Source of the DNA: a virus
Lineage: Duplodnaviria; Heunggongvirae; Uroviricota; Caudoviricetes
Virus record (IMG/VR): IMGVR_UViG_3300033068_001610
Span: 1-64,000 of that record
Direction: 5' to 3' (one strand)
Length of the DNA stretch: 64,000 nt
The translations under genes were made by a program, and so were the position numbers. Below, piece by piece: positions 1,547 through 42,119 of the stretch. The first letter of the stretch is position 1, and each line of letters starts with the position of its first letter. The notes under the pieces are model-generated. The model saw only the letters and a program-made list of their open reading frames with translations. It made no database searches and was not told the origin of the DNA.

Positions 1547-1592
1547 ATATAAAATATATTAAAAGCCCACCATTACAGTGGGCCTTTGATTA

Positions 1593-3023: not shown

Positions 3024-3028
3024 TTTAT

Positions 3029-3292: not shown

Positions 3293-3343
3293 AACTGAAA
3301 GTATTAAAAAGCTCTGCTATTTCTAACAGAGCTTGTTATTGTT

Positions 3344-4564
3344 TTATTTGTTTTTTAAATCAAGACCAAGATCTTTGGCAGCTTTCGCACTCATAAGTTC
3401 CATAAAATTGAAACCTGCATTTCCTGCAGATCCTCCTCCAGATACATATGTAGGAACAAGTGAACCTTCATAGTTAGCAAAAGCTTCAGCCCAAAATCTT
3501 TGTACTTTTTCATATGTAGCCAACTTTTGAGTTAAAGCTCCATCTGCTTGCATTACAAGACGTTTTTTAGCTGCAATACCTTCACCTTCCAAAATATCTT
3601 TTTGTTTGTTTAAATTGGCTGTTTGTACTGCTAAATTAGCTACATCTTTTGCAGCTTCAGCTTGAGTAACAAGTTTAGATTTAATAACTTCTTGTTCCCA
3701 TTTAGCTTTGGCAGCATTTGCTTCTCCTTGTTTAGCTGTAGTGATAGCATCTTGTTCAGCTCTTTTAGCATTAGCAATGGCAGTTTGAACAGACATTATA
3801 GCTTTTTGTTGACTTTGAATTTGAGCTTCTACTGTTTTATCATATCGAATATCATTAATAGAAATACTATATAAACGAATACCAAATTCTTCAATAGAAG
3901 ATTTTTCTTGTCTATAAGGATTACCTTTAATCATTACAATTTCTACTTTACTAACAGCTTTTTCAGTATTTGTTAATGCATCCACTTCACGTACAGATAT
4001 AGTTTTAGTTTTATATACTCCTTTAGAAGATTGATCTTCAATATAATATATAAGGTCATTTCTTTTTTCTGCATATGATTCTTTAGATGACATCAAAGGT
4101 CCTGTCATAAATATTGATTTAGATATATTAGTATTTACTAATTGTTCTTCAATATTTTCTTGATTTCTATAAGTACTATGAACTTTCTTCATTTTATTTT
4201 CATCTAAAGGAAGATCTATACGAATACTTCCTGATATCCAAGCATGACCACCATCATTAAATTTGACTGGCAAGCTTTTATCATATTCAGTGCCTATATA
4301 TTCTTTTTCTTTAGGTGCAAGAAAATTAATTTGACTAGAACGTTTGTAATGTGTTACTCTTCCAAGTCCTTGCCAAGTTGGCCCTGGTTCATACACCACT
4401 TTAAGATCTCCACTTAAAGATTGAATTACAAGAATTTCTCCTGCATCATTGTCTTCAATTGTATTAAATGATAAAACGACTGCAGCTACTAAAACTAAAA
4501 GTATTAAAGCATACTTTCTAATACCTTTAATCACTGAACTTGATTGATTTTCTTCTGTGTACAT
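3344..4564 (-). CDS. SPFH/band-7 (HflK/flotillin-like) membrane protein
   Basis: N-terminal TM helix YALILLVLVAAVVLSF, central SPFH-like core, C-terminal Ala/Gln/Lys-rich coiled coil (AKRAEQDAITTAKQGEANAAKAKWEQE...) typical of HflK/C and flotillins. 406 aa. Confidence 0.65.
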   Translation of the reverse strand: MYTEENQSSSVIKGIRKYALILLVLVAAVVLSFNTIEDNDAGEILVIQSLSGDLKVVYEPGPTWQGLGRVTHYKRSSQINFLAPKEKEYIGTEYDKSLPVKFNDGGHAWISGSIRIDLPLDENKMKKVHSTYRNQENIEEQLVNTNISKSIFMTGPLMSSKESYAEKRNDLIYYIEDQSSKGVYKTKTISVREVDALTNTEKAVSKVEIVMIKGNPYRQEKSSIEEFGIRLYSISINDIRYDKTVEAQIQSQQKAIMSVQTAIANAKRAEQDAITTAKQGEANAAKAKWEQEVIKSKLVTQAEAAKDVANLAVQTANLNKQKDILEGEGIAAKKRLVMQADGALTQKLATYEKVQRFWAEAFANYEGSLVPTYVSGGGSAGNAGFNFMELMSAKAAKDLGLDLKNK

Positions 4565-23028: not shown

Positions 23029-23101
23029 TGCGTGGTAGAGCAGTTGGTAGCTCGTGAGACTCATAATCTCAAGGCCATGGGTTCGAGTCCCATTCACGCT
23101 A
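23029..23101 (+). tRNA. tRNA with CAU anticodon (Met, or Ile2 if lysidine-modified)
   Basis: Cloverleaf read by eye: acceptor TGCGTGG/TCACGCT, U8, D-arm GAGC-AGTTGGTA-GCTC, anticodon arm TGAGA-CTCATAA-TCTCA, variable AGGCC, T-arm ATGGG-TTCGAGT-CCCAT, discriminator A. U1:U72 mismatch. Confidence 0.8.
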
Positions 23102-23134
23102 CTAAGTATTAAACCAATTATTAAACAACTACAT

Positions 23135-23584
23135 GTGAGTAAAAAAGAACAAATCCTAATCCTTATTAGTGAGGGAAAATCTGCAAAAGAAATTTCAACA
23201 CTTTTAAATTGTAATACAGCTTTGATTTATTATTACACTAATCATAATAAAAATTTGATTAAATATAAAGAAAAAAGAAAAGATGAATTATTTAAGAAAA
23301 GTCAACAATTAAGTACAAATAAAATTAAACTTAGAAATAGAAGAATAGTTTTAGAATATTTACAAGAACATCCTTGTATAGATTGTGGAAACACAGATAT
23401 TAGAGTACTAGAATTTGACCATGTAAGAGGAAATAAAATTGATTCTGTTTCTGTAGGTGTAAAAGATTCTTGGTCTGTTATTAAATTAATGAAAGAAATT
23501 GATAAATGTGAAATACGCTGTGCAAATTGTCATAAGATAGTTACAGATGAAAGAAGACAAATAAATAAAACCAATAATAACTAA
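23135..23584 (+). CDS. HNH homing endonuclease with N-terminal HTH
   Basis: HPCIDCGNTDIRVLEFDHVRGNKID...CEIRCANCHKIV is a classic HNH/zinc motif. N-terminal LISEGKSAKEISTLLNCNTALIYYY is HTH-like. No ATG before the domain, so a GTG start at 23135 is proposed; the listed ORF start 23054 runs through the tRNA. Confidence 0.7.
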   Translation: MSKKEQILILISEGKSAKEISTLLNCNTALIYYYTNHNKNLIKYKEKRKDELFKKSQQLSTNKIKLRNRRIVLEYLQEHPCIDCGNTDIRVLEFDHVRGNKIDSVSVGVKDSWSVIKLMKEIDKCEIRCANCHKIVTDERRQINKTNNN

Positions 23585-25351: not shown

Positions 25352-26515
25352 ATGGCTGATTTCTCATTAACCACTGTCTTTGTGGTTCCAGTAGGACAAA
25401 CTGCGCTTCCTAGCTCTGGCTCCACACAAAACCTAACTGCTGGTCAGTTTGGTATTTTCAAGAACGACTACACTCTTGCCACTGCTGGCAACATTGCAGC
25501 TGCTCCTTATTTCTATCTTGCTCAAGGTAGAGCTAACACTTTCTTACAAGGATCCAAAAGATCTGACAAAATTAAAGGATGTGCTACAGCAAATTGCTCT
25601 TCTAATGTAACTGAATGGTATAAAGTAACTGGTTGTGCTACTCCTGCAACGCAAATTACAGATGTTTCTGATTTTGCTGTAACTTGTGGAGAAGTTTTGA
25701 CTTTGACTCTTAGAGCCCATTCTAGCTATATTGATACATTGTATTTCAATGGATTCACACGCTCTGTAACTGTTCAAGCACCTTGTTGTGATTGTGGTGG
25801 TGGAGATCCTTGTACTACTGTTGATACAAGTGCATTGATTGATCAATTGATTACAAAATTAACACAAAATGTAAAAGGAACTAATCCAGATAACATTGGA
25901 TTCAGTACTTTCTATAACTTTGAAAATGTTGGTGGGACCATCCTTCGTATTTCAGCTAAACCATTGACAAAATATGGACAACCATGTGATGTTGCTGCTT
26001 TCCCTTTTGAATATGACAGAATGTATTTCAGAACTTTTGTTTACAGTGGACCAGCTACTACTGCTGACTTTATTGTAGCAGACAACTGTAACATTGTTGC
26101 TAATGCTGTAATTACTCAACGTTCTTCTTATGCTACAGGTACTTCTGAAGAAATTGCTCAACTAGAGAAAAACTTCTATAGCTATCAAGCAGGGTATTTA
26201 AAACACCTTTACAAAATGGCTGGATATAATGAGAATTTTGAAACCTATGTAAATAGTGGTTCAAATTACACTACTTATTATATCAAGTTCAATGAGATTG
26301 ACAAAACTGCACAAAACTGGAATGCAAATCTAGCTACAGATAGTTCTGTAATAGTTGCTGTTGTTACAGGATCTGCAGTTGCCACTGAAATAGAAGGTGT
26401 TCTTGAAGCTGCTCTTGGTACTGTTGTAGACAATAATGCTTGCATTACTACTACTACAACTACTACTGGTGTTCCTCCAACAACTACCACTACTACTTCT
26501 ACACTGATTCCTTAA
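25352..26515 (+). CDS. Cys-rich structural protein with C-terminal poly-Thr tail (capsid decoration/fibre candidate)
   Basis: 387 aa. Elevated GC and biased codons, many Cys, ends TTTTTTGVPPTTTTTTSTLIP. Followed by a strong intrinsic terminator. Confidence 0.45.
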   Translation: MADFSLTTVFVVPVGQTALPSSGSTQNLTAGQFGIFKNDYTLATAGNIAAAPYFYLAQGRANTFLQGSKRSDKIKGCATANCSSNVTEWYKVTGCATPATQITDVSDFAVTCGEVLTLTLRAHSSYIDTLYFNGFTRSVTVQAPCCDCGGGDPCTTVDTSALIDQLITKLTQNVKGTNPDNIGFSTFYNFENVGGTILRISAKPLTKYGQPCDVAAFPFEYDRMYFRTFVYSGPATTADFIVADNCNIVANAVITQRSSYATGTSEEIAQLEKNFYSYQAGYLKHLYKMAGYNENFETYVNSGSNYTTYYIKFNEIDKTAQNWNANLATDSSVIVAVVTGSAVATEIEGVLEAALGTVVDNNACITTTTTTTGVPPTTTTTTSTLIP

Positions 26516-26597: not shown

Positions 26598-27152
26598 ATG
26601 CCAACATTAAAATTAGACTTTGTTGTTATACCAACAAATACTATTAATACACTTGCATTACAAGATAACTCTACTTATCCTGATGATCCTCCAGTAGTAT
26701 CTGCTCCTACAATAGAAATAACAGTACCAGCTTTTAGTACAGTTAGTTTACCTTTTGTAGTGGAAGGATATAATGGATTTAATTCAGGTTCATTAGGGAT
26801 AACTGCAGTGGGTGTATATGAACCTTTACCAGATGGTATATATCATTTTAAATATTCTATTGCACCTGCATATGAAAATTATGTTGAAAAGTCCTTCCTT
26901 CGTACAGATGCACTGCAGATGAGGTTTGATGAGGCTTTCATGACTTTAGATATGATGGAGTGTGATATGGCTATTAAAAAACAATCATTTGTAGATTTGA
27001 TGTCTATTTATTTCTTTATACAGGGTGCTATTGCAGCAGCAAATAACTGTGCAGAAGTTGAAGCAATTAAATTATATAAACAAGCTGATAGAATGTTAAC
27101 CACATTTATTAATCATGATTGTGGTTGTTCTGGAACTAACTATTTAAATTAA
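26598..27152 (+). CDS. hypothetical protein
   Basis: 184-aa ORF ending HDCGCSGTNYLN. Confidence 0.45.
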   Translation: MPTLKLDFVVIPTNTINTLALQDNSTYPDDPPVVSAPTIEITVPAFSTVSLPFVVEGYNGFNSGSLGITAVGVYEPLPDGIYHFKYSIAPAYENYVEKSFLRTDALQMRFDEAFMTLDMMECDMAIKKQSFVDLMSIYFFIQGAIAAANNCAEVEAIKLYKQADRMLTTFINHDCGCSGTNYLN

Positions 27153-27158
27153 AAAATT

Positions 27159-27713
27159 ATGTCATCTGGTATTTATAAAATAACTAATATTGTAAATAAT
27201 AAATTTTACATAGGTAGTAGTACTAGATTATCTGCAAGAAAAGCAGAACATAAATATAGAACTAAAACGCACAAAGGAAATTCAGCAATAAGAAGTGCTA
27301 TAATAAAATATGGAGAAGATAATTTTATCTTTTCTGTTTTAGAAGAATTTGAATTTGGACTATGGGCTAGTAAAGAATATATTAATGATATTTTATCTTC
27401 TAGAGAACAATATTATATTGATATTTTAATGCCTGACTATAATATTAGAAGACAAGATGTAACTAGATCAACAGGGGTTTGTTCTCAAAAACAAAAAGAA
27501 CATTTAAATAAAATAGCTAAACTTCCTAGAGATAGATCTTCTTATAAAAAACCAATTATTCAAAAAGATAAAAATGGAAATTTTTTAAAAGAATTCAGAT
27601 GTGCAAAAGATGCAGAAAAAGAATTAAATTTGTATAAAGGTTCTGTATCTAGAGTTTTATCTAAAGAATATAAACATACTAAAAACTATTATTTTGAACT
27701 TAAATATATATAA
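27159..27713 (+). CDS. GIY-YIG homing endonuclease
   Basis: N-terminus GIYKITNIVNNKFYIGSSTRLSARKAEH matches the GIY-(10)-YIG motif plus conserved R and E. Basic C-terminal DNA-binding region. Confidence 0.8.
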   Translation: MSSGIYKITNIVNNKFYIGSSTRLSARKAEHKYRTKTHKGNSAIRSAIIKYGEDNFIFSVLEEFEFGLWASKEYINDILSSREQYYIDILMPDYNIRRQDVTRSTGVCSQKQKEHLNKIAKLPRDRSSYKKPIIQKDKNGNFLKEFRCAKDAEKELNLYKGSVSRVLSKEYKHTKNYYFELKYI

Positions 27714-27715
27714 AA

Positions 27716-27853
27716 ATGTCAGCAACATGTAAAAACTGTGGAGCGCAAGTGGGTTGTGGGTGTCAATTAAAAAATGGACTTTGTACATATTGTCAAGGTA
27801 AATTATCAACAGCTGTAAATACAAACAATAATGTTGTTTCCCAAACTAACTAA
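27716..27853 (+). CDS. small Cys-rich peptide (45 aa) or N-terminal fragment of the frameshifted downstream gene
   Basis: Unlisted ORF MSATCKNCGAQVGCGCQLKNGLCTYCQGKLSTAVNTNNNVVSQTN. Resembles N-termini MSCTNCFNGC (28485) and MSCQDPCSNK (29597). Overlaps the 27831 ORF in the +1 frame. Confidence 0.3.
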   Translation: MSATCKNCGAQVGCGCQLKNGLCTYCQGKLSTAVNTNNNVVSQTN

Positions 27854-28472
27854 TAGTCCACAATGTGCAGAAATTCCTGCATTATTAGAGAATATAGACT
27901 GTGCACTTGCTAAACTATCTATTGAGTTGTATAACAATACAATATATATGTTTAATAAGCGTGTAGATAGTTATTCTATATTTGCTCTTTTGGAATATAA
28001 AAAAATATTGACAATTAAATATTGTGAGCCAGATTATCTTTCTTGTTTTACAATACCAATGATAGCAAGTAAAGTTAAAAAACTTTCTTTAAATTGTAAG
28101 AGTAAGTGTGTTGAACAAATAATTTTGACCACTACAACTACTACAACTGTAGCTCCTACGACTACAACTACAACAACAGTAGTACCAACTACCACTACAA
28201 CTACAACATCTAATTGTATATCTTGGATATACAATGTATCTTTGTATCTTTGTGAGGATTGTTCTGCTACAGGAGGAGGAAGCATGAATAACTTTGAACC
28301 ATTAACAATTGGTAAATGGTATAATTATAATGGATTTAAAATGCAAGTTAATTCATTAATAACTTGTTCTGCAGGAGACCCTGTTGAAACTATATTAGAT
28401 TCAAGTGGAACTAATACTTGTGGAGAATTAGTGTGCCCTCCAACAACGACAACAACAACAACAATAATTTAA
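27831..28472 (+). CDS. modular poly-Thr-linker protein (receptor-binding cassette member)
   Basis: 213 aa. Helix IDCALAKLSIELYNNTIY similar to the 29597 protein, then TTTTTTVAPTTTTTTTVVPTTTTTTTS, a ~75-aa Cys module, then PPTTTTTTTII. Confidence 0.45.
   Translation: MLFPKLTNSPQCAEIPALLENIDCALAKLSIELYNNTIYMFNKRVDSYSIFALLEYKKILTIKYCEPDYLSCFTIPMIASKVKKLSLNCKSKCVEQIILTTTTTTTVAPTTTTTTTVVPTTTTTTTSNCISWIYNVSLYLCEDCSATGGGSMNNFEPLTIGKWYNYNGFKMQVNSLITCSAGDPVETILDSSGTNTCGELVCPPTTTTTTTII
28127..28210 (+). repeat. ACN-codon tandem repeats (~27-30 nt units) encoding (V/A)PTTTTTTT
   Basis: Visible imperfect tandem repetition of acaactac/actacaac units. Confidence 0.6.
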
Positions 28473-28484
28473 AAAATCAATAAT

Positions 28485-29585
28485 ATGTCATGTACTAATT
28501 GCTTTAATGGTTGTGTAGAAACAACAAGCGATAAATGTGTAAAATATACTGGAATAGATATTCCATTATTAGGAATAAGTAATGGAGATACTTTAATCAG
28601 TGTTGAAGCAAATATTACTACTTATTTATTATCTGCACTAAATGGAACAGGAATAGTTCCTTATATCAACCCAGCATCATTATGTGCCCTTGTATCAAGT
28701 TATTTACCTGGTAGTGGCACTGTAACATTAATTAATATAATTGATGCCTTAATTAAGTCTATTTGCGATTTACAAACTCAAGTGAGTGGAAATACTTCTA
28801 CTTTGAATGTTTTAAATGCAAATTATACAATTGGATGTTTGACAGGAGTTACAGCTTCCTCAGATACTCATGATATTCTTCAGGCAACAATAACTAAAGT
28901 TTGCTCAGTTAGTTCTGCTCTTACAGCTCTTGCTTTAGATGTAGTTACTAATTATGTTGCAATTGCAGATATCGACACATATATTCAAGCCTATTTAGAT
29001 TCTATTGGTGGTGGAGGAGGTTCTCCAACTACACTAATGAAAGATAAAATGGTTCCTTACACTGTTGTAGAATATTATGGTTCATTAACTAATTTTGATG
29101 GTTCTGGTAAAGGAACTGGAGATTGGGATAAAATCTATCTTTGTAATGGTAGTAATGGTACTCCTGATAAAAGAGGTAGAGTTGGTGTTGGAGTGACAGA
29201 TGGTTCTATGTTGGGACTTACAATGTCTCCTTCTGTTAACCCTTCTACTCCAGGAAATCCAAACTATTCTTTGAATGCTCCTTTTGGCAGTAACACTGTT
29301 ACATTAACAAGTGCAGCTCAAATTCCATCACACACACATAATCCTACAGTAATATTAACAGATCCTGGTCATACCCATACTACTGAAATAGGTGGATATA
29401 GTGATGCAAACACTTCAGGAACTTCTTATACTTGGGTTCAGAAAGGAACAGGAGTTTATCTCCCTTCTTCTTCATCTCCTACAGGTATTACAGTGGCAGT
29501 CACTAATGGATACACAGGAGGAACAGAGTCTCATGCAAACATTCAGCCTAGCCTTGGTTGTTATTACATAATGTATATCCCATAA
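28485..29585 (+). CDS. phage tail-collar-domain protein (tail fibre/receptor-binding)
   Basis: WDKIYLCNGSNGTPDKRGRVGVGV and IPSHTHNPTVILTDPGHTHT match the tail-collar signatures (W..CDG...PDLRGRF..G; HTH). Cys-knot N-terminus MSCTNCFNGC. Confidence 0.65.
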   Translation: MSCTNCFNGCVETTSDKCVKYTGIDIPLLGISNGDTLISVEANITTYLLSALNGTGIVPYINPASLCALVSSYLPGSGTVTLINIIDALIKSICDLQTQVSGNTSTLNVLNANYTIGCLTGVTASSDTHDILQATITKVCSVSSALTALALDVVTNYVAIADIDTYIQAYLDSIGGGGGSPTTLMKDKMVPYTVVEYYGSLTNFDGSGKGTGDWDKIYLCNGSNGTPDKRGRVGVGVTDGSMLGLTMSPSVNPSTPGNPNYSLNAPFGSNTVTLTSAAQIPSHTHNPTVILTDPGHTHTTEIGGYSDANTSGTSYTWVQKGTGVYLPSSSSPTGITVAVTNGYTGGTESHANIQPSLGCYYIMYIP

Positions 29586-29596
29586 AAAACCAATTT

Positions 29597-30109
29597 ATGA
29601 GTTGTCAAGATCCTTGCTCAAATAAAACATCATCTGATGATGTATCTTATGTTGGCCCAAATTTACCAGGTACAGGAATTCAAACTTGTAATGATCTTAC
29701 TTTGGCTATACAGAAATTAGATAATAAAATTATTCAATTACAGAATGAAATATATCGCACAACAACAACCACAACTACAACTCTAACACCACCTACTACT
29801 ACAACTACTACAACAATAACACCTACAACCACAACTACTACTAGTTCTACAACAACTACTACTAGTTCAACCACTACAACAACTACAAGTTCAACCACCA
29901 CCACTACAACTACAATGGCTCCAATGACATGTAAAACATTTACATTATTGACCACTGAGAACAGTGCAAGTTGGTTAGCAGAAGATTGTTTAGGTAATGT
30001 AGTTGGAGGTATGATTTTACTAGCAGGTACTACAGTGGTAACAGGTTGTATTTGGAATAATACATTAGAATTATATGGTATGACAATCATATCACAAACA
30101 GAATGTTAA
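29597..30109 (+). CDS. modular poly-Thr-linker protein (start at internal Met MSCQDPC)
   Basis: Paralogous N-terminus to the 28485/27716 ORFs. A 60-aa Thr/Ser linker then a 65-aa Cys module ending ...ISQTEC. Confidence 0.45.
   Translation: MSCQDPCSNKTSSDDVSYVGPNLPGTGIQTCNDLTLAIQKLDNKIIQLQNEIYRTTTTTTTTLTPPTTTTTTTITPTTTTTTSSTTTTTSSTTTTTTSSTTTTTTTMAPMTCKTFTLLTTENSASWLAEDCLGNVVGGMILLAGTTVVTGCIWNNTLELYGMTIISQTEC
29761..29918 (+). repeat. extended ACN-codon tandem repeat tract (poly-Thr/Ser linker)
   Basis: About 160 nt of acaac(t/c)ac-type repeats. Confidence 0.6.
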
Positions 30110-30119
30110 AAATAAACCA

Positions 30120-31766
30120 ATGACAGCAGTAATAACATTAACTTTAGCAGGAGCAGATACAGGACCATTTAATTTGTATTCAAATGTAGATGGTTATATA
30201 TCTGCTTTTGCAAATAATATAACAAGAGACCAATTACTTGCAGGATATGCAACAGATGCTTTACCAGATTTTACAACTATAGTAAAAATTAAATCTATTG
30301 GAGAATGTCTGAATTCTGTTAATGTAATTGTTCCTCCTCAATCTTGCTACAATTTTCTTCCTGTAGATTCCTATTATTTGCTTAGTAATATTTCTAAAGC
30401 TGATACTGGATATTTCTATGGGTATTTCCCAGATGGGTATGTAGAAAATGATATTCCTACTACATTCAAAAATTTAATCAAGCTTAATCCAGATCTTACT
30501 ATAGATACAAATTTTAATGTAGGAGTTGGGTTTGATGAAATATTGTACACAGGATCTTCTATTCTTGAACAGCCAGATGGTAAAATTGTAGTGACAGGTA
30601 CTTTCTTGACATATCAGGGGGTAACTAAAAACAGAATAGTTAGACTCAACACTGATGCTAGTATTGATGCTACATTTGTTACTGGTACAGGATTTGATGG
30701 ATTTACACAAAAGCCAGGGATTGATTCTAATGGCTCAATTATAGTTACAGGGATATTCAATAATTACAATGGTACTTCTAGTCCTAGAATAGCTAGATTA
30801 CTTTCAGATGGAACATTAGATCCTAGTTTTGTTATTGGATCAGGATTTAATAATACCACTACAGATGTTTTAGTTAATCCAGACAATTCAATGTTTGTTC
30901 TTGGATACTTTGATACATACAATGGTGTACCAGTATCTCCTGGAATAGTTAAATTATTGGAAGATGGTTCTATAGATCCTTCTTTTAATGCAGGTACAGG
31001 AATTAGTCCTTATTCTCCAAACAATGCAAATTATTTTATGAGAATTCCTGGAGAAACATCCTTTTATGTAGGAGGATATCTCACTGACTATAATGGCACC
31101 ACTATATCAGGTATTATTAAATTAAATATGGATGGTACTGTTGACACATCTTTTAACTCAGGTACAGGATTTGATTCTTTTCCTTTGTACAATATGCTAG
31201 TTATATGGGGGGATAAGCTTTTAATTGAAGGATATTTCTTAGATTATAATGGAACTCCTACTAATTATGCAATTATTCTTAATGCAGATGGTACAGTGTA
31301 TTATACTTTTGATCTAGTATATGTGAGCCCTATTGTAATTGGTAACAATCTTTTTGCAGCAGAGTATAGTGATTGTTTAAAATTATTACATACATTTACA
31401 CCAAGTACAACAACTACCACTACTACTACAGTAATATTAGATTGTACAATAGATGGAACAGCTATAATTCAACTAATACCTACAACTACAACAACTACTA
31501 CATTACCAGTATCATATGCTGTAAATGTAACAACAGATAGTTGGGTTGATAATGCATCAGCATGTTCTAGTTATTTAACAATAGACTTAGACTTACATAG
31601 TCCTGATAGTGTAATTACTCCTGGTAGTACAATATTATATACTGATATGGCTCTAACAACCCCTTATACTGGATTAGGTTTATATCACATAACATCATAT
31701 GGAGGAATAGTGTCTATAGTAATTGAAGCAACAGGATTAGTAACAGAATATGGAACACCATGTTAA
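30120..31766 (+). CDS. receptor-binding protein with delta-60-like beta-propeller repeats and C-terminal Cys module
   Basis: At least 6 tandem ~50-aa repeats (G.GFD...DGKIVVTGTF..Y.G.....I.RLN.DGS.D.SF). Shared N-terminal domain MTAVITLTLAGADTGPFNLYSNVDGYISAF. Two poly-Thr linkers. Confidence 0.55.
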   Translation: MTAVITLTLAGADTGPFNLYSNVDGYISAFANNITRDQLLAGYATDALPDFTTIVKIKSIGECLNSVNVIVPPQSCYNFLPVDSYYLLSNISKADTGYFYGYFPDGYVENDIPTTFKNLIKLNPDLTIDTNFNVGVGFDEILYTGSSILEQPDGKIVVTGTFLTYQGVTKNRIVRLNTDASIDATFVTGTGFDGFTQKPGIDSNGSIIVTGIFNNYNGTSSPRIARLLSDGTLDPSFVIGSGFNNTTTDVLVNPDNSMFVLGYFDTYNGVPVSPGIVKLLEDGSIDPSFNAGTGISPYSPNNANYFMRIPGETSFYVGGYLTDYNGTTISGIIKLNMDGTVDTSFNSGTGFDSFPLYNMLVIWGDKLLIEGYFLDYNGTPTNYAIILNADGTVYYTFDLVYVSPIVIGNNLFAAEYSDCLKLLHTFTPSTTTTTTTTVILDCTIDGTAIIQLIPTTTTTTTLPVSYAVNVTTDSWVDNASACSSYLTIDLDLHSPDSVITPGSTILYTDMALTTPYTGLGLYHITSYGGIVSIVIEATGLVTEYGTPC

Positions 31767-31787
31767 TCATAATTTAAAAAATAAAAA

Positions 31788-32363
31788 ATGACAGTATTAA
31801 TAACATTAACAGCAGCAGGAACAGACTCAGGTCCTTTTAATCTATATTCAAATTTAGATGGATATATCACTGCTTTTGAAACAGGGGTAAGTAAAGCTTC
31901 TTTATTAGGTGGGTATACTTCTGTAGTGGTGCCTGATTACACAACATCAATAAGAGTAAAATCTACAGGAGATTGTGTTAATTATATAGACATTGTACTA
32001 GTAGGACTCACTACAACTACAACAACTACAGTGGCTCCTACAACTACCACTACAACAACAGCTGAACCAACTACAACAACTACAACTACAGAAACACCTA
32101 CAACAACAACTACCACTACAGCAGCACCAATTTCACAGGATATTTTATTAGGATATAGTGGTGCAGATAGTGCAACATCTTGTACTAATATTGCAACACC
32201 TGTAACAAAATATATTCCATATGGACAAGATTGGATGGTAGTAACTTTCTTATATGAAAATGCTTCTCCAGACACAACACCAGCTATTCCTGGTTATTAC
32301 TCAGATGGTGCTAAATGGTACTTCTGGGATGGAGCTACATTCTCATCTACAGGATTCTGTTAA
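31788..32363 (+). CDS. short paralog of the 30120 protein: shared N-terminal anchor domain + 4 x PTTTTTTT repeats + Cys module
   Basis: MTVLITLTAAGTDSGPFNLYSNLDGYITAF aligns with the 30120 N-terminus. Ends ...SSTGFC. Confidence 0.5.
   Translation: MTVLITLTAAGTDSGPFNLYSNLDGYITAFETGVSKASLLGGYTSVVVPDYTTSIRVKSTGDCVNYIDIVLVGLTTTTTTTVAPTTTTTTTAEPTTTTTTTETPTTTTTTTAAPISQDILLGYSGADSATSCTNIATPVTKYIPYGQDWMVVTFLYENASPDTTPAIPGYYSDGAKWYFWDGATFSSTGFC
32003..32122 (+). repeat. 4 tandem 30-nt repeats encoding xxPTTTTTTT
   Basis: Units beginning acaactac.../actacaac... each end in gctcct/gaacca/acacct/gcacca. Confidence 0.65.
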
Positions 32364-32405: not shown

Positions 32406-32440
32406 CTCCTCAAGTTTATTCTTGGGGAGTTTTTGTTTTA
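32406..32440 (+). terminator. rho-independent terminator
   Basis: CTCCTCAAG-TTTATT-CTTGGGGAG (9-bp stem with one G.U) followed by TTTTTGTTTT. Confidence 0.65.
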
Positions 32441-32542: not shown

Positions 32543-33766
32543 ATGAGTCACAATCAGAATTTATTACAGGAATTAGAAGAATTGTTGAGTAGAAAAAGAA
32601 GTAAAAAATTCTATGCTGAGAAGCTAGGAATAAGTGAAGAAGAAGTTAATCTTCTTTTAAAAGAGTTAAGAAACAAAGAGGAAGAAATACCTTTAACATA
32701 TCCTTCTCCAACTGGAGAAATAAGAAAAGTAAATTTAGAAAAAGGTACAATTGAAAGTAGAATTTCAACAACCTTTGAACCAAAGAATGACATTGAATTA
32801 GCAGCATTACACAAAATAGACTTAAGTAAATATGTTATTACAAATTACTGGTCTAAACTACAACCCAATGGAAGTTTCACTTCCTCAGTTTTTTCAAAAA
32901 GAAAACAACCAGAAGATTATTCAATTGAAGATTTTAAAAAGTTTTTAGAGGGATTTACCCCTAAAACTATTACAATCACAAAAGTAAGTACAGACTTTGA
33001 TAAAGATTTTGTTGATATTGAATTATCACTCTCTGATTATCATCTAGCAAAAAAACATATTGATGGGGATAATGACCCACAAACAAGAACTTCCAGATAC
33101 TACAACACAGCTGTAAGTCTTATTAAAAAAACTAGAGCTATCTATAATTTAGATACAATAGTTTTCCCAATATCAAATGACTTCTTTCATACAGATAATA
33201 TACAAAATCAAACTACAAATGGTACTCCACAAGATACAATTCTTGAATATCATTCTGAATATGAATTAGGATTTGCTTTACTAGTAGATACTATCAATAT
33301 GTTAAGAGGTAATGGTAATAATGTAAAAGTAGTTTTAGTACAGGGAAATCATGACAGAACTAAATCTTTTTATTTAGCTCATGCACTTGAGGTTTATTTT
33401 AAAGATGCTTTTGATGTTGAATTTATTAGAGAACACTCAACTATAAAAGGAGTAACATTGGGAAATACATTTATAGGGTGGCATCATGGAAATTGCAAAA
33501 TAGATGACCTCCCTTTATTATTTGCTACAAGCCCTAAATATAGTTCTATGTTTGGTGATGCAATGTACAGGGAAGTTCATACAGGAGATAAACATCACTA
33601 TATGGCTAAAGAAGTCAAAGGAGTAAGAATACAACAAATGCCTAGCTTATCTGGAACAGATAAATGGCATTCAGATAATAATTTTGTAAATAGTGTACGA
33701 GCAGCTCTAGTTTTAGTATATGATAAAATAACAGGAAAAACTGCAGAGTTTGAGTCTCGTTTATAA
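32543..33766 (+). CDS. calcineurin-like metallophosphoesterase (SbcD/Mre11- or PPP-like) with ~160-aa N-terminal domain
   Basis: Motifs in order: SDYHL (DxH), ISNDFFHTDN (GD..D-like), VVLVQGNHDRT (GNHD), IGWHHGN, HTGDKHH (GH.H). 407 aa. Confidence 0.6.
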   Translation: MSHNQNLLQELEELLSRKRSKKFYAEKLGISEEEVNLLLKELRNKEEEIPLTYPSPTGEIRKVNLEKGTIESRISTTFEPKNDIELAALHKIDLSKYVITNYWSKLQPNGSFTSSVFSKRKQPEDYSIEDFKKFLEGFTPKTITITKVSTDFDKDFVDIELSLSDYHLAKKHIDGDNDPQTRTSRYYNTAVSLIKKTRAIYNLDTIVFPISNDFFHTDNIQNQTTNGTPQDTILEYHSEYELGFALLVDTINMLRGNGNNVKVVLVQGNHDRTKSFYLAHALEVYFKDAFDVEFIREHSTIKGVTLGNTFIGWHHGNCKIDDLPLLFATSPKYSSMFGDAMYREVHTGDKHHYMAKEVKGVRIQQMPSLSGTDKWHSDNNFVNSVRAALVLVYDKITGKTAEFESRL

Positions 33767-35949: not shown

Positions 35950-38900
35950 ATGGCTGAAGAAACAGGTAATGTAAAACAAGAGTTTACAAATGCAACTATA
36001 GGTTTAAATCAAGATCAAACTTTAAATCAAATTAAACAAGGTACATTAACTTATGCCTTGAATGCTGCTTTGGAAAATTTTGACTCTAGTTCTGTTAATT
36101 ATCAAAATGAACAAGGTAATGAATTTTGTGTAAGTTTTCCAGAAGGATTTGCACTTATAGGACATCATTTCATTATTGAACAAAATAAACATTTATTCTT
36201 TTTGACAAATCCACTCACTGGAGATTGTCAACTAGGACACATGGATAACAATGATTGTGTATATAGAATATATATTGATGACCCTTGTTTAGGTTGGAAA
36301 GTAAATAGTCCTATTCATAAAATTGTTCATAAGATAACTAACTGTAATACAGAGATTTACTGGCCTGATAATGTAGGTAGAAGATATCTTGATATTGATA
36401 ATATTCCTAGAAGATTAGATTTAAATAGTACTCTTTGTGATCCATTATATAATACTGATCTTTTGGTAGATTGTAATAAACTTTTATTACAGCCTAACTT
36501 TAGTATACCTGATATTTCTGTTGTTGATGTAATTAGTGGTGGGGATAATACTTCAGGAACTGTTCAGTTTGCTGTACAGTATTCTGATGCTAGTGGTAAC
36601 CCTTACACTTCTTATTATTCAATAACTAATCCTACACCAATTGCCAATAAACAATTAACTACAAATAACTTTAATGATCCTGTAGGTAAATCAGTTGTTG
36701 TTAATGTTTCCAATCTTGATGTATCAGGACAGTTTGCTTATTTCAATTTAGCTGTTATAAAAACAATAAACAATATTCCTTCTGTTGAGTTAGTGGGAAC
36801 ATATTATATTGAAGATTACTTCAGAAAAATTACATACACTGGTCAACAAAAAACAAATGTAAAATTATCTATTAATGATATATTTGAAAAGTTTCCTTAC
36901 TATGATTTGGCTGATGATATTACAGCAGTACAAGATGTTTTAGTATGGAAAGGGCTTACAACCATAGATAGAATAAACTATCAATCAATTGCTTCCCAAA
37001 TAAAGTTGCAATGGCAGACATATAAAATACCTGCTAATGAAGATTATTCAAATGAGTTAAATGCTACAAATCTTAGAGGATACTTAAGAGATGAGGTATA
37101 TGCTCTTGAAATTGCTTTTTTATTAAATAATGGTAAACAAACAGATGGTTTTCATATTCCTGGTAGAGAGAAAAATTTTAATGAAATATCTAAAGATGAT
37201 GTTCCTAATACAAATACTGACTTTGTAGGTAGTGGAACATCTGCACCTTATTGGAAAATATATAATACTGCTACTGTTATAGGAGATGCTGATGGAGACC
37301 CTATTGGTACTGCCACTCCATATAAATATGGAGACTTTGCTTATTGGGAATCAGAAGAAGAATATTCTTGTAATGATGATATATGGGGGTCTCTTGCTGG
37401 TCAAAAAATTAGACATCACAAGTTTCCTGATGTATTGGTATCTCCTATTATGGAAGGGGCTACTTTTATAGATTCTGGAAGTATGACTATCCAACGTGAT
37501 GCTATATTTCCTATTGGAATAAAGATTGATGATGAGCAAATAAAAACATTGATTGAAACCTCATCACTTACACAAGCTCAAAAGGATGCTATCATAGGAT
37601 TTAAAATATTAAGAGGAAACAGAGCAACAAACAAATCAATTGTTGCAAAAGGTATATTAAGAAATGTAGGTAAGTATGAAAAAGATTTTCAAACTTATTA
37701 CTACCCTAATTACCCTTACAATGATATATCTGCAGATGAATTTCTTTTGGATAAAAGCAATTCTTATACAGATCAAGAGAGAGCATGGCTTATTCAATGT
37801 CAAGAAGATGGAGAATATGAGTATACAAATAATGTAACAGGAACTCTAATTAAAGGAAATAAAATGGAAAAAGACAAAAGCTATGAGTTTATGTCTTTAA
37901 CCAGGCCATTTATAAAAAGTGGAAAAGCTATTTTTGGTCCAGCTAGTTATGATGTTATTTTTGTAAATGGTTGTCAAGTGTATGAAACAATTAAATTACA
38001 AGCATTATGGACTACAGAATGGATGAGTTCTACAGAAATTACTACAACAAAAGAAGCATCAACTTGGGTATTTCCTGCTTATGGCCCAGTATTATGTAGT
38101 AATCCTACTAATCCTCCTACAGCTCCTTATTTTGCTGCCTATGGTGTAGCACAAAAAGTTAAAATGGGTGAGAAACTTCGTAGTTCTTTGGGGGGCGAAA
38201 TGCCTGCACAAACAGTACAAGTGACAGAAATAATGCCTTTAGGTGTTGTGACAAATAAATATATATCAAGAAGATCAATATTGGAGCAAGAAAAACCAGC
38301 ACCACTAAATTCTTTTTCACAAGATACATCAGATAGACAAATATTTAATTCACCTGAAACTTCTTTTGGACAACCTTTCTTGGGAAATATTCTTAAGTTA
38401 GAAAGTTTGATATATGGTAGAGGAAAAGCTCACTTTGTAGAGGTTAAAAATAATGCCAAATATAAATTGTTGACTGCTGAAGCACAGAAAGATGCATTAG
38501 ATAGTTCAAATGATATTGGAGCTATTACAGATCCTTTCAATGCTGTTGCAATGTTTACTGCTTATCAGGCATATCTTGCTATTTATATAAATGGTATTAC
38601 TAGAAAAAATTATGCTTACTCTTATAACTCAAGAGCAAGTTATGATTATACTACTCCTATGCCAAATGATCAAGGTATTAAACAAAGAAACTTGGATGTA
38701 GCTAACTATCTTATTCCTACAGTACAGTCTGTTGGAGAGGATAATGGTATATTAATTAATAACTATCAAAGAGAAAGTTCTATATATTTAAAAACAAAAG
38801 ATGTTACACCTATATTACTTCCTAAAGATGCAATAACTATTGCCTCTAGTGGAAATGTGATTGTTGAAGATAAGTCTAGAACTACTATAAGTATTAGTGG

Positions 38901-41241
38901 TGTTTGTGACACTCCTGCAAAAGAACAAAATATTAGTGTACTTTCTTATTATGCTTCCCTTAAAAATGAATTTATTAATCAATGGGGACAGATATATTCA
39001 TATGAGACTATTGATACAGGATATCAAAATATATTTAATTCTAAAACATCCTATCCAACAACAATTTTTGGAGGAGATACATTTATAAGTAGATTTGCTT
39101 TTAAAACAAAACTTCCTTTCTTTTTTGACAATAGAGTGGGGGCTCCTGATGATTCAGATATATTTTATGATGAGATTGGTAATGTTGCCTATCCTAAATA
39201 TTGGCATTCTGCAAGGTCAGTACTAGAAAATTATACTACTAGTAAGTCTAAGTTAATGCAAAATGTTATATCATACAAAGCTCATAATTTTGATTGTCCT
39301 AATGTTCCAGTACAAGGTGGGGGAACTGCTAGTTCTTTTTATGATGGATATTTCTATTTGTTTGCTTATGGTATTCCTAGTTTCTATTGTGAAACAAGTT
39401 ATAATGTAGATTTACGTCAAGCTTATAACAATAAAGAAGGAGATTATTGGCCTCATGTATCAACAGGTATTCCAGATGATTGGGTTCAAGAATCTTTTGT
39501 AAGTATTGCCAATGACAATACATATACATATAATTCAACCTTTTCTAAACAAAACAAAGAAAATACATTTACACACCTTCCTCCAGACTATAATGGTAAG
39601 GCTTGTTTTACAAATTATCCTTTTAGAGCTATTTACTCAGACCATCAAAATATTGATTCTGACAATAGGGTAAATAGTTGGTTAACATACAGAGCAATAT
39701 CATATTTTGACTTTCCACAAAACTATGGAGAGTTAACTTCTATAGATGGTATTCAAAATAGTGCTATACTTGCTAGATTTCATAATAAATCTCTTATGTA
39801 TGGTAACTTGTTGACAATGGATACCAGTAATCCACAAGCAGCATATCTTGGAAATCCTTCTTTGTTTAAAGGGGCTCCTCCAATTGATTTTGCAGAAACA
39901 GATCTTGGGTATGTTGGAAGTCAGAATAAATTCCTCCTAAAGATCCCTCAAGGACAAATCACAATTGATGCCAAGAGAGGACAAGTATTCTTGATTTCTG
40001 GCACTCAAGCTACTGATTTGTCTGCTTTTGGTTCTGGATTAAATAGATTCTTTACAGATCATTTGGCTTTTGAGATTTTAAATCATTTTCCAAATGTTGA
40101 TATAGACAATCATTTTAATGGTATAGGATTACATGGTGTATATGATAGCAAATTTGATAGGGTAATTATATCTAAACTAGATTATATACCTATTGATTCA
40201 AGAGTTAAATATGATGCATCCACTGAAGAATTCTATATTGAGGAAGTAATAAATAACTTGACTATTAAGACTGTGGTTGATGTAAGAGATCAATTATATT
40301 TCTGTAATAAATCATGGACAGTTTCCTATAACATGAATACCCAAAGATGGATTTCATTTCATAGTTATATTCCTAATTATTACATAGCTGAAAACAATTT
40401 CTTTTATTCAGGAATTAATGGGTGTTGTGAAGATTTTGATTTCATAGCAGGAAGTCTTGTAGAAAATACTACAACAACTACAACCACTACGATATTTGTA
40501 CCAGACTGCTTACCTTTATTTGGTAATGCTACAGTTATATATCCTATTGATTGTAACTTGTATGGTGAATTAGTTATTACTGATTGTGATTTGGCAGGTA
40601 CAGGAGTTATTACTGTTGGGCCACCTCCAACTCCTTGTGTTAGACCAGAAAATCTTAATGATTTTTATTTAATTTCAGGCTATACAATTTTAGCAGGACC
40701 AGTAGATATTAGTTCTACAATTTCTAAAGATTCTGCTTGTTTGGCTAGAACTAATTTATCAACACTACCTGGGTTATATCCAATAGGTGTTAGTATAAAT
40801 TCTTTTGATCTTAACATAGGAACAAAAGTTTATATAAATGATGGAACAAATGATTGTTCTACTGTACCAGATGGTTGGTATTTAACTGTAGATTCTTTGG
40901 TAGATGGAACTGTTTACCTTATTGTTGAAGGAGTTATTACAATTATTGATAATTGTATACCTACAACTACAACTACTACATCATCAACATCTACTACTAG
41001 TACTACAAGCACAACCAGTACAACATCTACTAGCACAACTACAACAACAACATTACCTCCTTGTCAAACTTATCAAGCTTCTACATCAGGATCTTTATTG
41101 ACAGTTAATTGGTTAGATTGTTTAGGAGTGACTCAATCACAAACAGTGGGTGGTGTTGGAGGTTATGATGCATTTTCTTTCTGTGCTACAGTAATAACAG
41201 ATGCAGGTGGTGCTGATATTTCATTAATAGGACCTTGCTAA
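35950..41241 (+). CDS. giant tail/virion structural protein (1763 aa) with C-terminal poly-Thr-linked Cys modules
   Basis: 5.3-kb stop-free ORF. C-terminus has ENTTTTTTTTIF..., a Cys-containing module, a TTTTTTSSTSTTSTTSTTSTTSTSTTTTTT linker, and a module ending LIGPC. Confidence 0.6.
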   Translation: MAEETGNVKQEFTNATIGLNQDQTLNQIKQGTLTYALNAALENFDSSSVNYQNEQGNEFCVSFPEGFALIGHHFIIEQNKHLFFLTNPLTGDCQLGHMDNNDCVYRIYIDDPCLGWKVNSPIHKIVHKITNCNTEIYWPDNVGRRYLDIDNIPRRLDLNSTLCDPLYNTDLLVDCNKLLLQPNFSIPDISVVDVISGGDNTSGTVQFAVQYSDASGNPYTSYYSITNPTPIANKQLTTNNFNDPVGKSVVVNVSNLDVSGQFAYFNLAVIKTINNIPSVELVGTYYIEDYFRKITYTGQQKTNVKLSINDIFEKFPYYDLADDITAVQDVLVWKGLTTIDRINYQSIASQIKLQWQTYKIPANEDYSNELNATNLRGYLRDEVYALEIAFLLNNGKQTDGFHIPGREKNFNEISKDDVPNTNTDFVGSGTSAPYWKIYNTATVIGDADGDPIGTATPYKYGDFAYWESEEEYSCNDDIWGSLAGQKIRHHKFPDVLVSPIMEGATFIDSGSMTIQRDAIFPIGIKIDDEQIKTLIETSSLTQAQKDAIIGFKILRGNRATNKSIVAKGILRNVGKYEKDFQTYYYPNYPYNDISADEFLLDKSNSYTDQERAWLIQCQEDGEYEYTNNVTGTLIKGNKMEKDKSYEFMSLTRPFIKSGKAIFGPASYDVIFVNGCQVYETIKLQALWTTEWMSSTEITTTKEASTWVFPAYGPVLCSNPTNPPTAPYFAAYGVAQKVKMGEKLRSSLGGEMPAQTVQVTEIMPLGVVTNKYISRRSILEQEKPAPLNSFSQDTSDRQIFNSPETSFGQPFLGNILKLESLIYGRGKAHFVEVKNNAKYKLLTAEAQKDALDSSNDIGAITDPFNAVAMFTAYQAYLAIYINGITRKNYAYSYNSRASYDYTTPMPNDQGIKQRNLDVANYLIPTVQSVGEDNGILINNYQRESSIYLKTKDVTPILLPKDAITIASSGNVIVEDKSRTTISISGVCDTPAKEQNISVLSYYASLKNEFINQWGQIYSYETIDTGYQNIFNSKTSYPTTIFGGDTFISRFAFKTKLPFFFDNRVGAPDDSDIFYDEIGNVAYPKYWHSARSVLENYTTSKSKLMQNVISYKAHNFDCPNVPVQGGGTASSFYDGYFYLFAYGIPSFYCETSYNVDLRQAYNNKEGDYWPHVSTGIPDDWVQESFVSIANDNTYTYNSTFSKQNKENTFTHLPPDYNGKACFTNYPFRAIYSDHQNIDSDNRVNSWLTYRAISYFDFPQNYGELTSIDGIQNSAILARFHNKSLMYGNLLTMDTSNPQAAYLGNPSLFKGAPPIDFAETDLGYVGSQNKFLLKIPQGQITIDAKRGQVFLISGTQATDLSAFGSGLNRFFTDHLAFEILNHFPNVDIDNHFNGIGLHGVYDSKFDRVIISKLDYIPIDSRVKYDASTEEFYIEEVINNLTIKTVVDVRDQLYFCNKSWTVSYNMNTQRWISFHSYIPNYYIAENNFFYSGINGCCEDFDFIAGSLVENTTTTTTTTIFVPDCLPLFGNATVIYPIDCNLYGELVITDCDLAGTGVITVGPPPTPCVRPENLNDFYLISGYTILAGPVDISSTISKDSACLARTNLSTLPGLYPIGVSINSFDLNIGTKVYINDGTNDCSTVPDGWYLTVDSLVDGTVYLIVEGVITIIDNCIPTTTTTTSSTSTTSTTSTTSTTSTSTTTTTTLPPCQTYQASTSGSLLTVNWLDCLGVTQSQTVGGVGGYDAFSFCATVITDAGGADISLIGPC
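40957..41060 (+). repeat. Thr/Ser-linker tandem repeat tract
   Basis: acaact/actagt-type repeats. Confidence 0.55.
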
Positions 41242-41252
41242 AATAAAAAACT

Positions 41253-42119
41253 ATGTCAAAAATTGTAACAATAAAATTAACAAAACTTGGTCTTAATGTA
41301 GGCCCTTTTGATATCACAGATGAATTTGGTAATATTATTGCTTTGAATGTAAGCAAAGAAACTTTAATCACAGGTATAAGTTATATTGTTAATGATGATG
41401 TTTTTATGATAACATTATCTTCCTTAGGAAAATGCAAAGTAGTGAAGACTGTTGGTTTGGCTCCTATATATAAACAAGAGTATGCTGATACAGTGGCAGT
41501 TAAAACTACTACATCTTGTGTATGGAGACATTTAACCAATATACAATTGTATAATTCATTTTATGGAAATGTAGAGCCATATATAATTGAGTTTCCTTTT
41601 GCTTATAGTTTTCAAGATGAGATATTACAAAATGTTATTTCTTATACAAAAGCATATAGTTACCTATCTATACCTGATGGTGTGTATAATGATAACACAA
41701 GAATAGAAGTGAATGATCATTGGTTTAATAGAGCTATTGTTTATAATGGACAACAAAGTTCTGGTATATTAAATCTTGTTCAAAAACCAGCAAATAATTT
41801 ATTTGCTTATGGTAAATATCCTATATTAGGAACAGAAGGAAAAACTATTTTGTATACTAAGAGTGATAACTTTTATCAATACAATACATTCTGGGCTTTA
41901 CAAAAATCCTCTCAACAACCATTGTTTAATGTATCTTGTGAGAATCTTTCTATTGATAAAGTAGTTAACCAGGACAATATGGATTACACTAATCGAAGTT
42001 TCAAAAAATCTCCTATAAGGGCAAAAGAATTAAAGATTAGACACATACTAGACAACACAGATAATATTCACCTAGTGAGCCAATTTATATTAGCTCCTGC
42101 TCAAATATCATACAAGTAA
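41253..42119 (+). CDS. hypothetical virion-module protein
   Basis: 288-aa ORF. Confidence 0.45.
   Translation: MSKIVTIKLTKLGLNVGPFDITDEFGNIIALNVSKETLITGISYIVNDDVFMITLSSLGKCKVVKTVGLAPIYKQEYADTVAVKTTTSCVWRHLTNIQLYNSFYGNVEPYIIEFPFAYSFQDEILQNVISYTKAYSYLSIPDGVYNDNTRIEVNDHWFNRAIVYNGQQSSGILNLVQKPANNLFAYGKYPILGTEGKTILYTKSDNFYQYNTFWALQKSSQQPLFNVSCENLSIDKVVNQDNMDYTNRSFKKSPIRAKELKIRHILDNTDNIHLVSQFILAPAQISYK

Follow-up and report, generated by a model that had tools for sequence, protein, structure and literature searches.

We analysed a 64,000-nt stretch of an uncultured tailed virus (IMG/VR record IMGVR_UViG_3300033068_001610, positions 1 to 64,000; hereafter the window; G+C ~ 30%), with a focus on the run of small genes between positions 27,716 and 32,363. 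Judged from its genes, this run is probably a tail-appendage (fibre) gene cassette, in which fixed virion anchors carry exchangeable small modules on polythreonine (poly-Thr) spacers. An initial annotation had described its open reading frames (ORFs) as modular receptor-binding proteins with shared N-terminal anchors, poly-Thr linkers and swapped distal modules. The ORFs were found at the positions given there, and the combination of conserved anchors, poly-Thr spacers and exchangeable distal modules was borne out by 60 related loci, in which modules are common to different anchor types.

For the comparison, 80 related IMG/VR loci were retrieved through the N-terminal domain shared by the ORFs at 30120 and 31788, with a few more obtained otherwise, and a hidden Markov model (HMM) was built for each conserved N-terminal region. 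All 60 loci containing both flanking genes had the identical gene order A0-A1-A2-A3-A4, running from a left-border gene (184-187 aa) through A0, A1, A2, one or two A3 and one to three A4 genes to a right-border gene (~ 405 aa), with cassette sizes of 1,977-9,291 bp. The proteins of the mapped loci measured 29-57 aa (A0), 88-806 aa (A1), 357-390 aa (A2), 95-1,359 aa (A3) and 72-577 aa (A4). In the window, the left border (26598..27152, plus strand) encodes a 184-aa homologue of tail hub protein A (THA) of the crAss-like phage ΦcrAss001, the presumed fibre-docking hub. It is followed on the same strand by A0, a zinc-ribbon-like micro-protein with six Cys (27716..27853), A1, a Cys-rich domain protein (27831..28472), A2, a constant tail-collar-like fibre (28485..29585), A3, a coiled-coil fibre (29597..30109), and two A4 proteins, one with a β-sandwich anchor and a DUF5122 propeller (A4a, 30120..31766) and one with a β-sandwich anchor and a 78-aa module (A4b, 31788..32363). 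The cassette is closed by a terminator-like hairpin with a T-run on the plus strand (32406..32439; 9-bp stem with five G-C pairs; a consensus match only), and a σ70 promoter scan gave background-level scores. The right border (32543-33766) encodes a 407-aa protein of the calcineurin-like phosphoesterase/DNA-repair-exonuclease type (PHROG 704, 4e-54), and a location between a fibre cassette and the Ring2 gene is unexpected for such a nuclease-like gene.

The GIY-YIG endonuclease that had been placed at the upstream edge of the cassette is indeed present, as a free-standing gene on the plus strand (27159..27713) with a catalytic domain (Pfam GIY-YIG, 8e-6), a NUMOD-type DNA-binding domain and a match to homing endonucleases in PHROG (1.5e-17). 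It shows presence/absence polymorphism, being missing from both the closest relative (L006) and a near-identical strain (L095, 99.5% identical upstream of the insertion site). Lying between the left border and A0, it is a mobile insertion and no functional part of the cassette.

Four attachment types were found where two anchor families had been claimed: a ~ 112-aa Cys-rich domain, which includes the previously overlooked N-domain of 27831 (match to the A1 anchor HMM, E 1e-53), a ~ 42-aa Cys-containing N-terminal motif, a 72-aa β-sandwich and a 6-Cys micro-protein. The proposed kinship of 30120 and 31788 holds, as their N-termini are 49% identical over 74 aa and their profile has 375 database homologues at E ≤ 1e-3 (best ~ 1e-35). 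AlphaFold2 (AF2) modelled this A4 anchor as a small β-sandwich, with a predicted local distance difference test (pLDDT) score of 88 in one of five models. The second claimed family, joining the N-termini of 27716, 28485 and 29597, was retained in part. Pairwise similarity between 28485 and 29597 was not significant, and their relationship emerged from the comparison of A2 and A3 profiles built from 61 and 99 distinct sequences (hhalign probability 97%, E 1e-10, 42 columns). The 27716 peptide shares merely M-x-C-x-x-C with these two and is unrelated to them by pairwise and profile comparison. Its own signature is six invariant Cys (CxxC-x5-CxC-x6-CxxC) in 36 distinct sequences, and it takes the first position in 60 of 60 loci; A0 is probably a joint or assembly factor.

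Behind the anchors, the proteins are built in segments. A1 consists of the Cys-rich N-domain (27831-28118), three spacers of seven threonines (T7; 28128-28208), a 6-Cys module (28209-28442) and a terminal T7 tail (28443-28463). A3 starts with an anchor of the A2 type and a short coiled coil (29597-29758), continues with a 52-residue Thr/Ser spacer (29759-29914) and ends with a 4-Cys module (29915-30106) that has relatives in loci L006, L046, L048 and L050; its orthologues carry an Asn/Ile-rich, coiled-coil-like stretch behind the anchor. In A4a, the 72-aa anchor (30120-30332) precedes the propeller (~ 30333-31406), T7-T8 spacers (31407-31430 and 31482-31502) and an 85-aa module (31503-31763). 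The propeller, initially annotated as delta-60-like, matches DUF5122 (PF17164) in four stretches (E 2.3e-48). A4b has the 72-aa anchor (31788-32000), four T7 spacers (32010-32120) and the 78-aa "YYSDG..WYFWDG" module (32121-32360), while its usual orthologue consists of the anchor plus zero to five poly-Thr units and nothing more. In A2, a hub-type anchor (28485-28619) is joined to a tail-collar-like C-terminal half that contains HxH motifs, and a hypervariable patch lies at ~ 29385-29504. Its earlier assignment to the tail-collar domain stands as far as tail proteins in general are concerned, with residues 201-364 matching tail (1.7e-15) and tail fibre (4.3e-9) families in PHROG; against Pfam, including tail collar PF07484, no family was matched at E ≤ 0.1.

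In a six-frame translation of the 64 kb, every run of at least six Thr lay in frame within plus-strand ORFs, and six proteins carried such runs (25352, 27831, 29597, 30120, 31788 and 35950). The poly-Thr linkers and the distinct C-terminal modules behind them were thus seen as annotated, and they extend beyond the annotated span to 25352 and 35950. The tracts are imperfect 30-nt repeats (T7-x-x-P) with mixed ACA/ACT codons in the proportions of ordinary genes genome-wide. In-frame confinement, ordinary codon proportions and imperfect repeats together indicate protein-level features and not simple-sequence artefacts. Among the distinct proteins, poly-Thr was carried by 43 of 53 A1, 105 of 112 A3 and 76 of 100 A4 proteins, and by no A0, A2 or right-border protein. 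The repeat-number variation that had been anticipated was found, as A4 orthologues with the same anchor carry zero to five Thr units, and as L004 has four Thr units and L032 and L042 three behind an identical anchor, with (ST)n tracts of 13, 12 and 11.

The 276 distinct anchor proteins were split at their Thr/Ser spacers, which gave 393 modules that were grouped by strict clustering. Many clusters occur behind more than one anchor type, among them an 81-112-aa terminal module (cluster 3) behind A3 (11 times) and A4 (4), a 77-83-aa module (cluster 5) behind A3 (8), A1 (3) and A4 (1), a Fib_succ_major-containing module behind A1 (4), A3 (5) and A4 (2), and a 61-aa 4-Cys module behind A3 (33) and A1 (4). 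Profile comparisons merged the module families into two superfamilies, one of ~ 60-aa four-Cys modules and one of ~ 80-110-aa terminal modules. The latter includes the 85-aa terminal module of 30120 (hhalign 88-94%), whose family is found behind A3, A1 and A4 anchors elsewhere. The terminal module of 31788 has 56 relatives among 1.84 billion representative proteins; they stand at the C-terminus or in tandem arrays in nearly every case, and the proteins that carry them include unrelated ones besides those with an A4 anchor and Thr spacers. A search of a 5.8-billion-protein set with the 4-Cys module profile returned only five short matches, and ten representative small modules had no Pfam match at E ≤ 1.

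Comparison with the closest relative, L006, showed the cassette polymorphism that had been foreseen, in the form of whole modules that differ between genomes with 80-89% DNA identity through flanks and anchors. The terminal module of 30120 is replaced by unrelated sequence in L006, the breakpoint lying 10 bp ahead of the first Thr tract; that of 31788 is likewise replaced, with the breakpoint inside the Thr array; and the A1 gene of L006 is truncated, lacking the spacer-plus-module extension (28080-28468). Two of these three module-level differences thus have breakpoints at or in poly-Thr tracts. L006 also lacks the stretches of the GIY-YIG gene (27164-27700) and of an HNH gene further upstream (23143-23565).

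The near-identical strain L095 showed where variation is concentrated at strain level. It lacks the GIY-YIG gene (window 27165-27722), and its identity to the window falls from 99.5% upstream of the insertion site to 95.4% downstream. This downstream divergence lies largely in a variable patch of A2, and endonuclease-associated co-conversion could also contribute to it. A0, A1, A3 and the first 252 residues of 30120 differ by 0-5 substitutions, or by one missing residue in A0. A2 residues ~ 285-345 consist of unrelated sequence between the conserved HxH and GG..SHANIQPS motifs, and are the main cassette difference over the stretch covered by the L095 contig. Conservation across 59 distinct A2 sequences is lowest at residues 301-340, with 0.13-0.29 identity to the window versus 0.4-0.75 elsewhere. 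A diversity-generating retroelement was considered as the origin of the patch in 28485 and rejected, since no second copy of 29301-29585 as template repeat exists within the window; no reverse transcriptase was seen among the ORFs scanned. The pattern of variation in A2 is typical of fibre tips that contact receptors, and A2 (28485) is, on sequence grounds, probably the true specificity determinant. The hypervariable patch makes A2 a better candidate for this role than the Thr-tethered proteins. The idea of modular receptor-binding proteins was accordingly kept for the anchors and swapped modules and given up for the poly-Thr proteins as primary receptor-binding protein; these are more likely accessory adhesins.

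The genomic surroundings place the cassette within a virion gene block. Terminase, portal and major capsid protein genes (PHROG 1e-80, 1e-84 and 5e-33, respectively) lie on the plus strand in a structural block that starts at 15 kb, and the cassette and right border are followed on the plus strand by genes for Ring2 (from 33779; Pfam CrAss_Ring_2, 4e-16), Ring1 (from 34994; CrAss_Ring_1, 2e-13) and a 1,763-aa muzzle protein (35950..41241; PHROG 37948, 4e-108). Metagenomic relatives on contigs of ~ 113 kb have the same gene order, with Pfam matches to Crass_capsid and crAss_MUZ. The paralogous R1/R2 rings, the muzzle and the crAss-type capsid of the relatives form a crAss-like virion module. 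By these ring, muzzle, terminase, portal and capsid matches and by its relatives, the window is part of an uncultured crAss-like podophage of ~ 113 kb.

In ΦcrAss001, the gene order is gp33, the rings gp34/gp35, the auxiliary capsid protein (AUX) gp36, the homing endonuclease gp37, THA gp38, tail hub protein B (THB) gp39, R2 gp40, R1 gp43 and the muzzle gp44. The window resembles it in the synteny of rings, AUX position, homing endonuclease and THA, followed by Ring2, Ring1 and muzzle. AF2 modelled the 184-aa left-border protein (pLDDT 85) as an FN3-like sandwich followed by three helices. This predicted two-domain fold, with the position upstream of the ring genes, agrees with THA (gp38); a Foldseek search with the model gave single-domain FN3 matches only. 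In ΦcrAss001, the trimeric fibre gp22 is held by its N-terminal 26 residues in each of twelve THA2-THB hubs, and disulfides lock the joints of hubs and rings (PMC10172136). The window fibres have short Cys-containing N-terminal anchors, and disulfide-stabilised joints like those of ΦcrAss001 are plausible. By analogy, the Cys-bearing 42-residue A2/A3 anchor is likely the hub-docking element. The A1 N-domain (~ 112 aa) lies in the position of THB and has its basal size (~ 112-120 aa), from which we infer a THB-like part. Both assignments go by analogy because sequence similarity to gp22 and gp39 is lacking, with an hhalign probability of 0.4% for the 27831 N-domain against THB gp39. The five anchor profiles and those of the 184-aa protein and of a 387-aa protein encoded upstream of it were negative against ΦcrAss001 gp21-gp43 (hhalign), as were PDB sequence searches with the 387-aa and 184-aa profiles. 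The two phages also differ, in that the fibre genes of the window stand directly after THA whereas those of ΦcrAss001 lie between portal and capsid genes, and in that the window fibres are small, with poly-Thr spacers and mini-modules, whereas ΦcrAss001 has large enzymatic tailspikes.

The only cultured relative, Leptolyngbya phage Lbo-JY46 (PP438436), also has a hub gene followed by fibre genes. It shares with the window the synteny of TerL, portal, capsid, THA and fibre block, a THA homologue (2e-19), and an A2/A3-type anchor at the N-termini of a 669-aa protein annotated as "tail fiber protein" and of the adjacent 814-aa protein. Unlike the window, it has large fibres (669 and 814 aa) and, in the region examined, neither poly-Thr spacers nor an A4 domain. 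The major capsid proteins of the two phages are 25% identical. Lbo-JY46 infects a cyanobacterium, and its G+C content (31.5%) is far lower than that of the Leptolyngbya host, which we take to be ~ 47%. A Bacteroidetes host, as initially annotated, was an assumption that found no support. A literature search on Lbo-JY46 returned nothing, and one on freshwater crAss-like phages nothing relevant. Lbo-JY46 could be an experimental entry point to the lineage.

The muzzle protein offers the most direct evidence that such modules are displayed on a virion protein, since it carries spacers and modules of the cassette type. Its C-terminal ~ 250 residues (40468-41238) comprise a T8 tract, two modules, a Thr/Ser spacer and a 4-Cys module, and this last module belongs to 4-Cys family c13, which is seen behind A3 and A4 anchors (hhalign 97%, E 2e-11). 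In one relative (L001, 13844-19880) the muzzle gene is split into a 1,481-aa protein with a poly-Thr tail and a 525-aa protein in which the end of the muzzle core precedes Thr-linked modules; the split points differ among relatives. The gene downstream of the muzzle (41253..42119, plus strand) encodes a muzzle-associated protein of 288 aa whose N-terminal domain is A4-like: orthologues match the A4 HMM (2.5e-9 and 6.5e-8), and in the window copy the resemblance is by eye only. The C-terminal part of the protein matches the end of PHROG 15100, the N-terminal part of which matches the muzzle protein. An A4-like domain in this place hints at a muzzle-proximal site for A4. Upstream of the left border, the 387-aa conserved protein (25352..26515, plus strand) at the gp36 position has a C-terminal poly-Thr tail (26447-26497); poly-Thr occurs in 45 of its 48 orthologues, 37 of which end in it. 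By position it is a putative auxiliary capsid protein, without sequence similarity to gp36.

From these observations we propose the following mechanism. The cassette lies directly downstream of the fibre-docking hub gene, and each conserved N-domain would fix its protein to the virion. The (Thr7-x-x-Pro)n runs behind three of the anchors and in the muzzle would act as extended spacers that present disulfide-rich modules, β-propellers or lectin-like domains like beads on a string. Recombination in or beside the spacer DNA would swap modules between genes and between phages, and slippage or unequal exchange would alter spacer length. Strain-specific receptor contact would most likely be made by the constant fibre 28485, whose C-terminal patch is hypervariable, and the tethered modules would most likely provide a multivalent first adhesion of low specificity to surface glycans. 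In this scheme we infer the docking sites, oligomeric state, disulfides and ligand binding.

Several points weigh against the proposal. The presence of the cassette proteins in the virion is suggested only indirectly, by genomic context, the tail-fibre homology of A2 and A3 and the modules shared with the muzzle. No anchor is similar in sequence to ΦcrAss001 gp21, gp22, gp29 or gp39, and the THA match of the left-border model ranks sixth by Z, after single-domain matches. The A4 model, with one of five AF2 models confident, has no significant structural neighbour, as Foldseek against the PDB gave no match below E = 1 and weak Ig-like noise only. The small modules belong to no Pfam family and have no demonstrated ligand. 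Finally, most A4 orthologues end in bare poly-Thr without a distal module, which misfits a receptor-binding role.

The small A4 proteins in particular lend themselves to another explanation, in which A4 and the 387-aa protein decorate the capsid in the manner of head fibres or Hoc, with the N-domain in capsomer pockets and a brush of Thr and modules for adherence or stability. The typical A4 orthologue (72-124 aa, domain plus Thr tail) is about as large as gp21 (97 aa) and gp29 (122 aa), the head fibres that occupy hexon pockets via their N-termini in ΦcrAss001, and its predicted β-sandwich has weak Ig-like neighbours; the 387-aa protein, with its Thr tail in nearly all orthologues, sits at the auxiliary-capsid position. 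However, the cassette genes lie in the hub-and-fibre block and not beside the capsid gene, the A4-like domain at the head of the muzzle-associated protein points to the tail, and sequence similarity to gp21, gp29 and gp36 is lacking (hhalign probabilities of A4 against gp21 and gp29 ≤ 0.2%). We regard capsid decoration as possible but distinctly less probable than the fibre cassette.

Alternatively, poly-Thr could chiefly be a substrate for O-glycosylation that gives the virion a mucin-like coat for shielding or adherence, with the modules being secondary. In 24 A1, 25 A3, 28 A4 and 37 AUX-like proteins, poly-Thr ends the protein with nothing attached, and the mixed synonymous codons indicate selection for Thr itself. 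Among the matches listed, T7-xx-P-T7 is common in genomes of Actinomycetota and Firmicutes, in which the linkers of secreted proteins are O-glycosylated. Glycosylated phage capsids have a precedent in mycobacteriophages of cluster F1 (Freeman et al. 2023, cited in PMC11256854). The Thr linkers had initially been named as candidate O-glycosylation sites of the Bacteroidetes type, for which no support emerged: the Bacteroidota sequon D(S/T)(A/I/L/V/M/T) occurs at 0 of 21 poly-Thr tracts, no signal peptides are evident, and the window ORFs scanned, which are part of the genome, included no glycosyltransferase. Moreover, phage proteins fold in the cytoplasm, beyond the reach of periplasmic O-glycosylation. 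Poly-Thr as chiefly a glycosylation substrate is considered unlikely.

That the cassette proteins are non-structural, being secreted or released at lysis to act on the host surface or on neighbouring cells, is highly improbable: although the modules are disulfide-rich, of extracellular type and reminiscent of carbohydrate-binding modules, and one relative of the 31788 module (P0294) occurs in a protein with a lipoprotein-like signal peptide, inspection revealed no evident signal peptide at any cassette N-terminus, the N-domains are conserved, the genes share one direction of transcription and lie between those for hub and rings, the muzzle protein is fused to the same modules, and A2 and A3 have tail-fibre homology.

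The fibre-cassette design can be compared with known systems. In bacterial glycoside hydrolases, Pro/Thr-rich linkers join carbohydrate-binding modules to catalytic domains. The cassette likewise places extended Thr/Pro spacers between small binding modules, but in viral structural proteins that assemble in the cytoplasm and lack a catalytic domain. The tailspikes of T7-like, K1-5-like and Klebsiella phages have a conserved N-terminal anchor and exchangeable C-terminal domains, and resemble the cassette in that the anchor is constant, the distal part varies, distal domains are exchanged horizontally and one virion has several alternative appendages. The cassette differs from them in that exchange occurs at low-complexity Thr spacers, that small modules stand in series, and that the same modules are found on at least four structural protein types, including the muzzle. 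Small accessory virion domains of the Ig-like or BACON kind, presumably for weak glycan adherence, are also known from T4 Hoc and the crAssphage BACON repeats (PMC6949934); unlike these directly fused domains, the cassette modules are without Pfam match, disulfide-rich and tethered by poly-Thr. A literature search for poly-threonine linkers in phage fibres, with incomplete coverage of papers, returned nothing. Plug-and-swap fibres are thus a known design, and poly-Thr beads on a string across several virion proteins appear to be new and undescribed.

Host recognition by the abundant crAss-like phages is poorly understood beyond ΦcrAss001. Fixed anchors, Thr spacers as sites of recombination and length variation, and a common module library would make the evolution of appendages in this lineage readable as a compact grammar, with uses in host-range prediction from metagenomes and in engineered display scaffolds. 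Metagenomic contigs of the lineage number in the hundreds: the A4 domain was confirmed at 465 loci in IMG/VR, and the hub protein has 1,730 homologues. The lineage is also a testable case for whether phages beyond mycobacteriophages glycosylate their virions.

The spacer pattern itself reaches further than this lineage. At least 119 stretches in IMG/VR contain the T7-xx-P-T7 DNA pattern, and 26 of the 80 loci examined belong to this lineage, the other 54 being unrelated viral contigs, so that the architecture may be widespread and overlooked. Some of the unrelated loci encode large Cys-rich multi-module proteins. A protein of 66-130 aa ("KAYVRFDGTGR...ECCNY") also recurs among them, with a Thr tail and in part of the cases a 4-Cys module. 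This second small-protein family, unrelated to those of the cassette ("LKAYVRFDGTGRVVAGSLILRK.KPKVG.W.EI.AYECCNY"), was seen on other low-G+C viral contigs (IMG/VR loci L098, L099, L120, L129, L157, L162, L167, L169, L171 and L172) and had no match among the cultured phages in GenBank. In bacterial genomes, the matches listed for T7-xx-P-T7 were mostly from Actinomycetota (Acidimicrobiia, mycobacteria), Ruminococcus/Oscillospiraceae and Streptococcus, with one Bacteroidia metagenome-assembled genome, and they are no host clue. It is conceivable, as a speculation to which we give a low probability, that poly-Thr spacers with exchangeable disulfide-containing mini-modules are a general dressing of several virion proteins in many uncultured phages, with Thr perhaps O-glycosylated in the cytoplasm to form a mucin-like brush. 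If true, this would be one general way to dress AUX capsid, hub-associated, fibre and muzzle proteins at once.

Searches of GenBank phages gave no DNA-level match to the window, and no match in DNA or protein searches with the cassette, 28485 or 31788. The exact 31788 protein sequence had no record in an assembly index. Two public sequencing runs (SRR32380204 and SRR28062246) contain a 3.8-kb contig that is 100% identical to the window and another that is 95-99.5% identical.

Elsewhere in the window, the downstream part has very large ORFs, of which a single one of 4,487 aa (48409-61872) after the muzzle and cargo region presumably encodes a fused cargo or virion RNA polymerase-type protein of crAss-like phages. 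The left end (221-4564, minus strand) encodes a MoxR-type AAA ATPase, a second AAA ATPase and an SPFH/Band-7 protein. Just past the capsid gene, an HNH endonuclease ORF (23054-23584; PHROG 3e-22) overlaps a tRNA-Met gene (23029-23102), and its absence from L006 marks it as a second mobile endonuclease insertion in the structural block.

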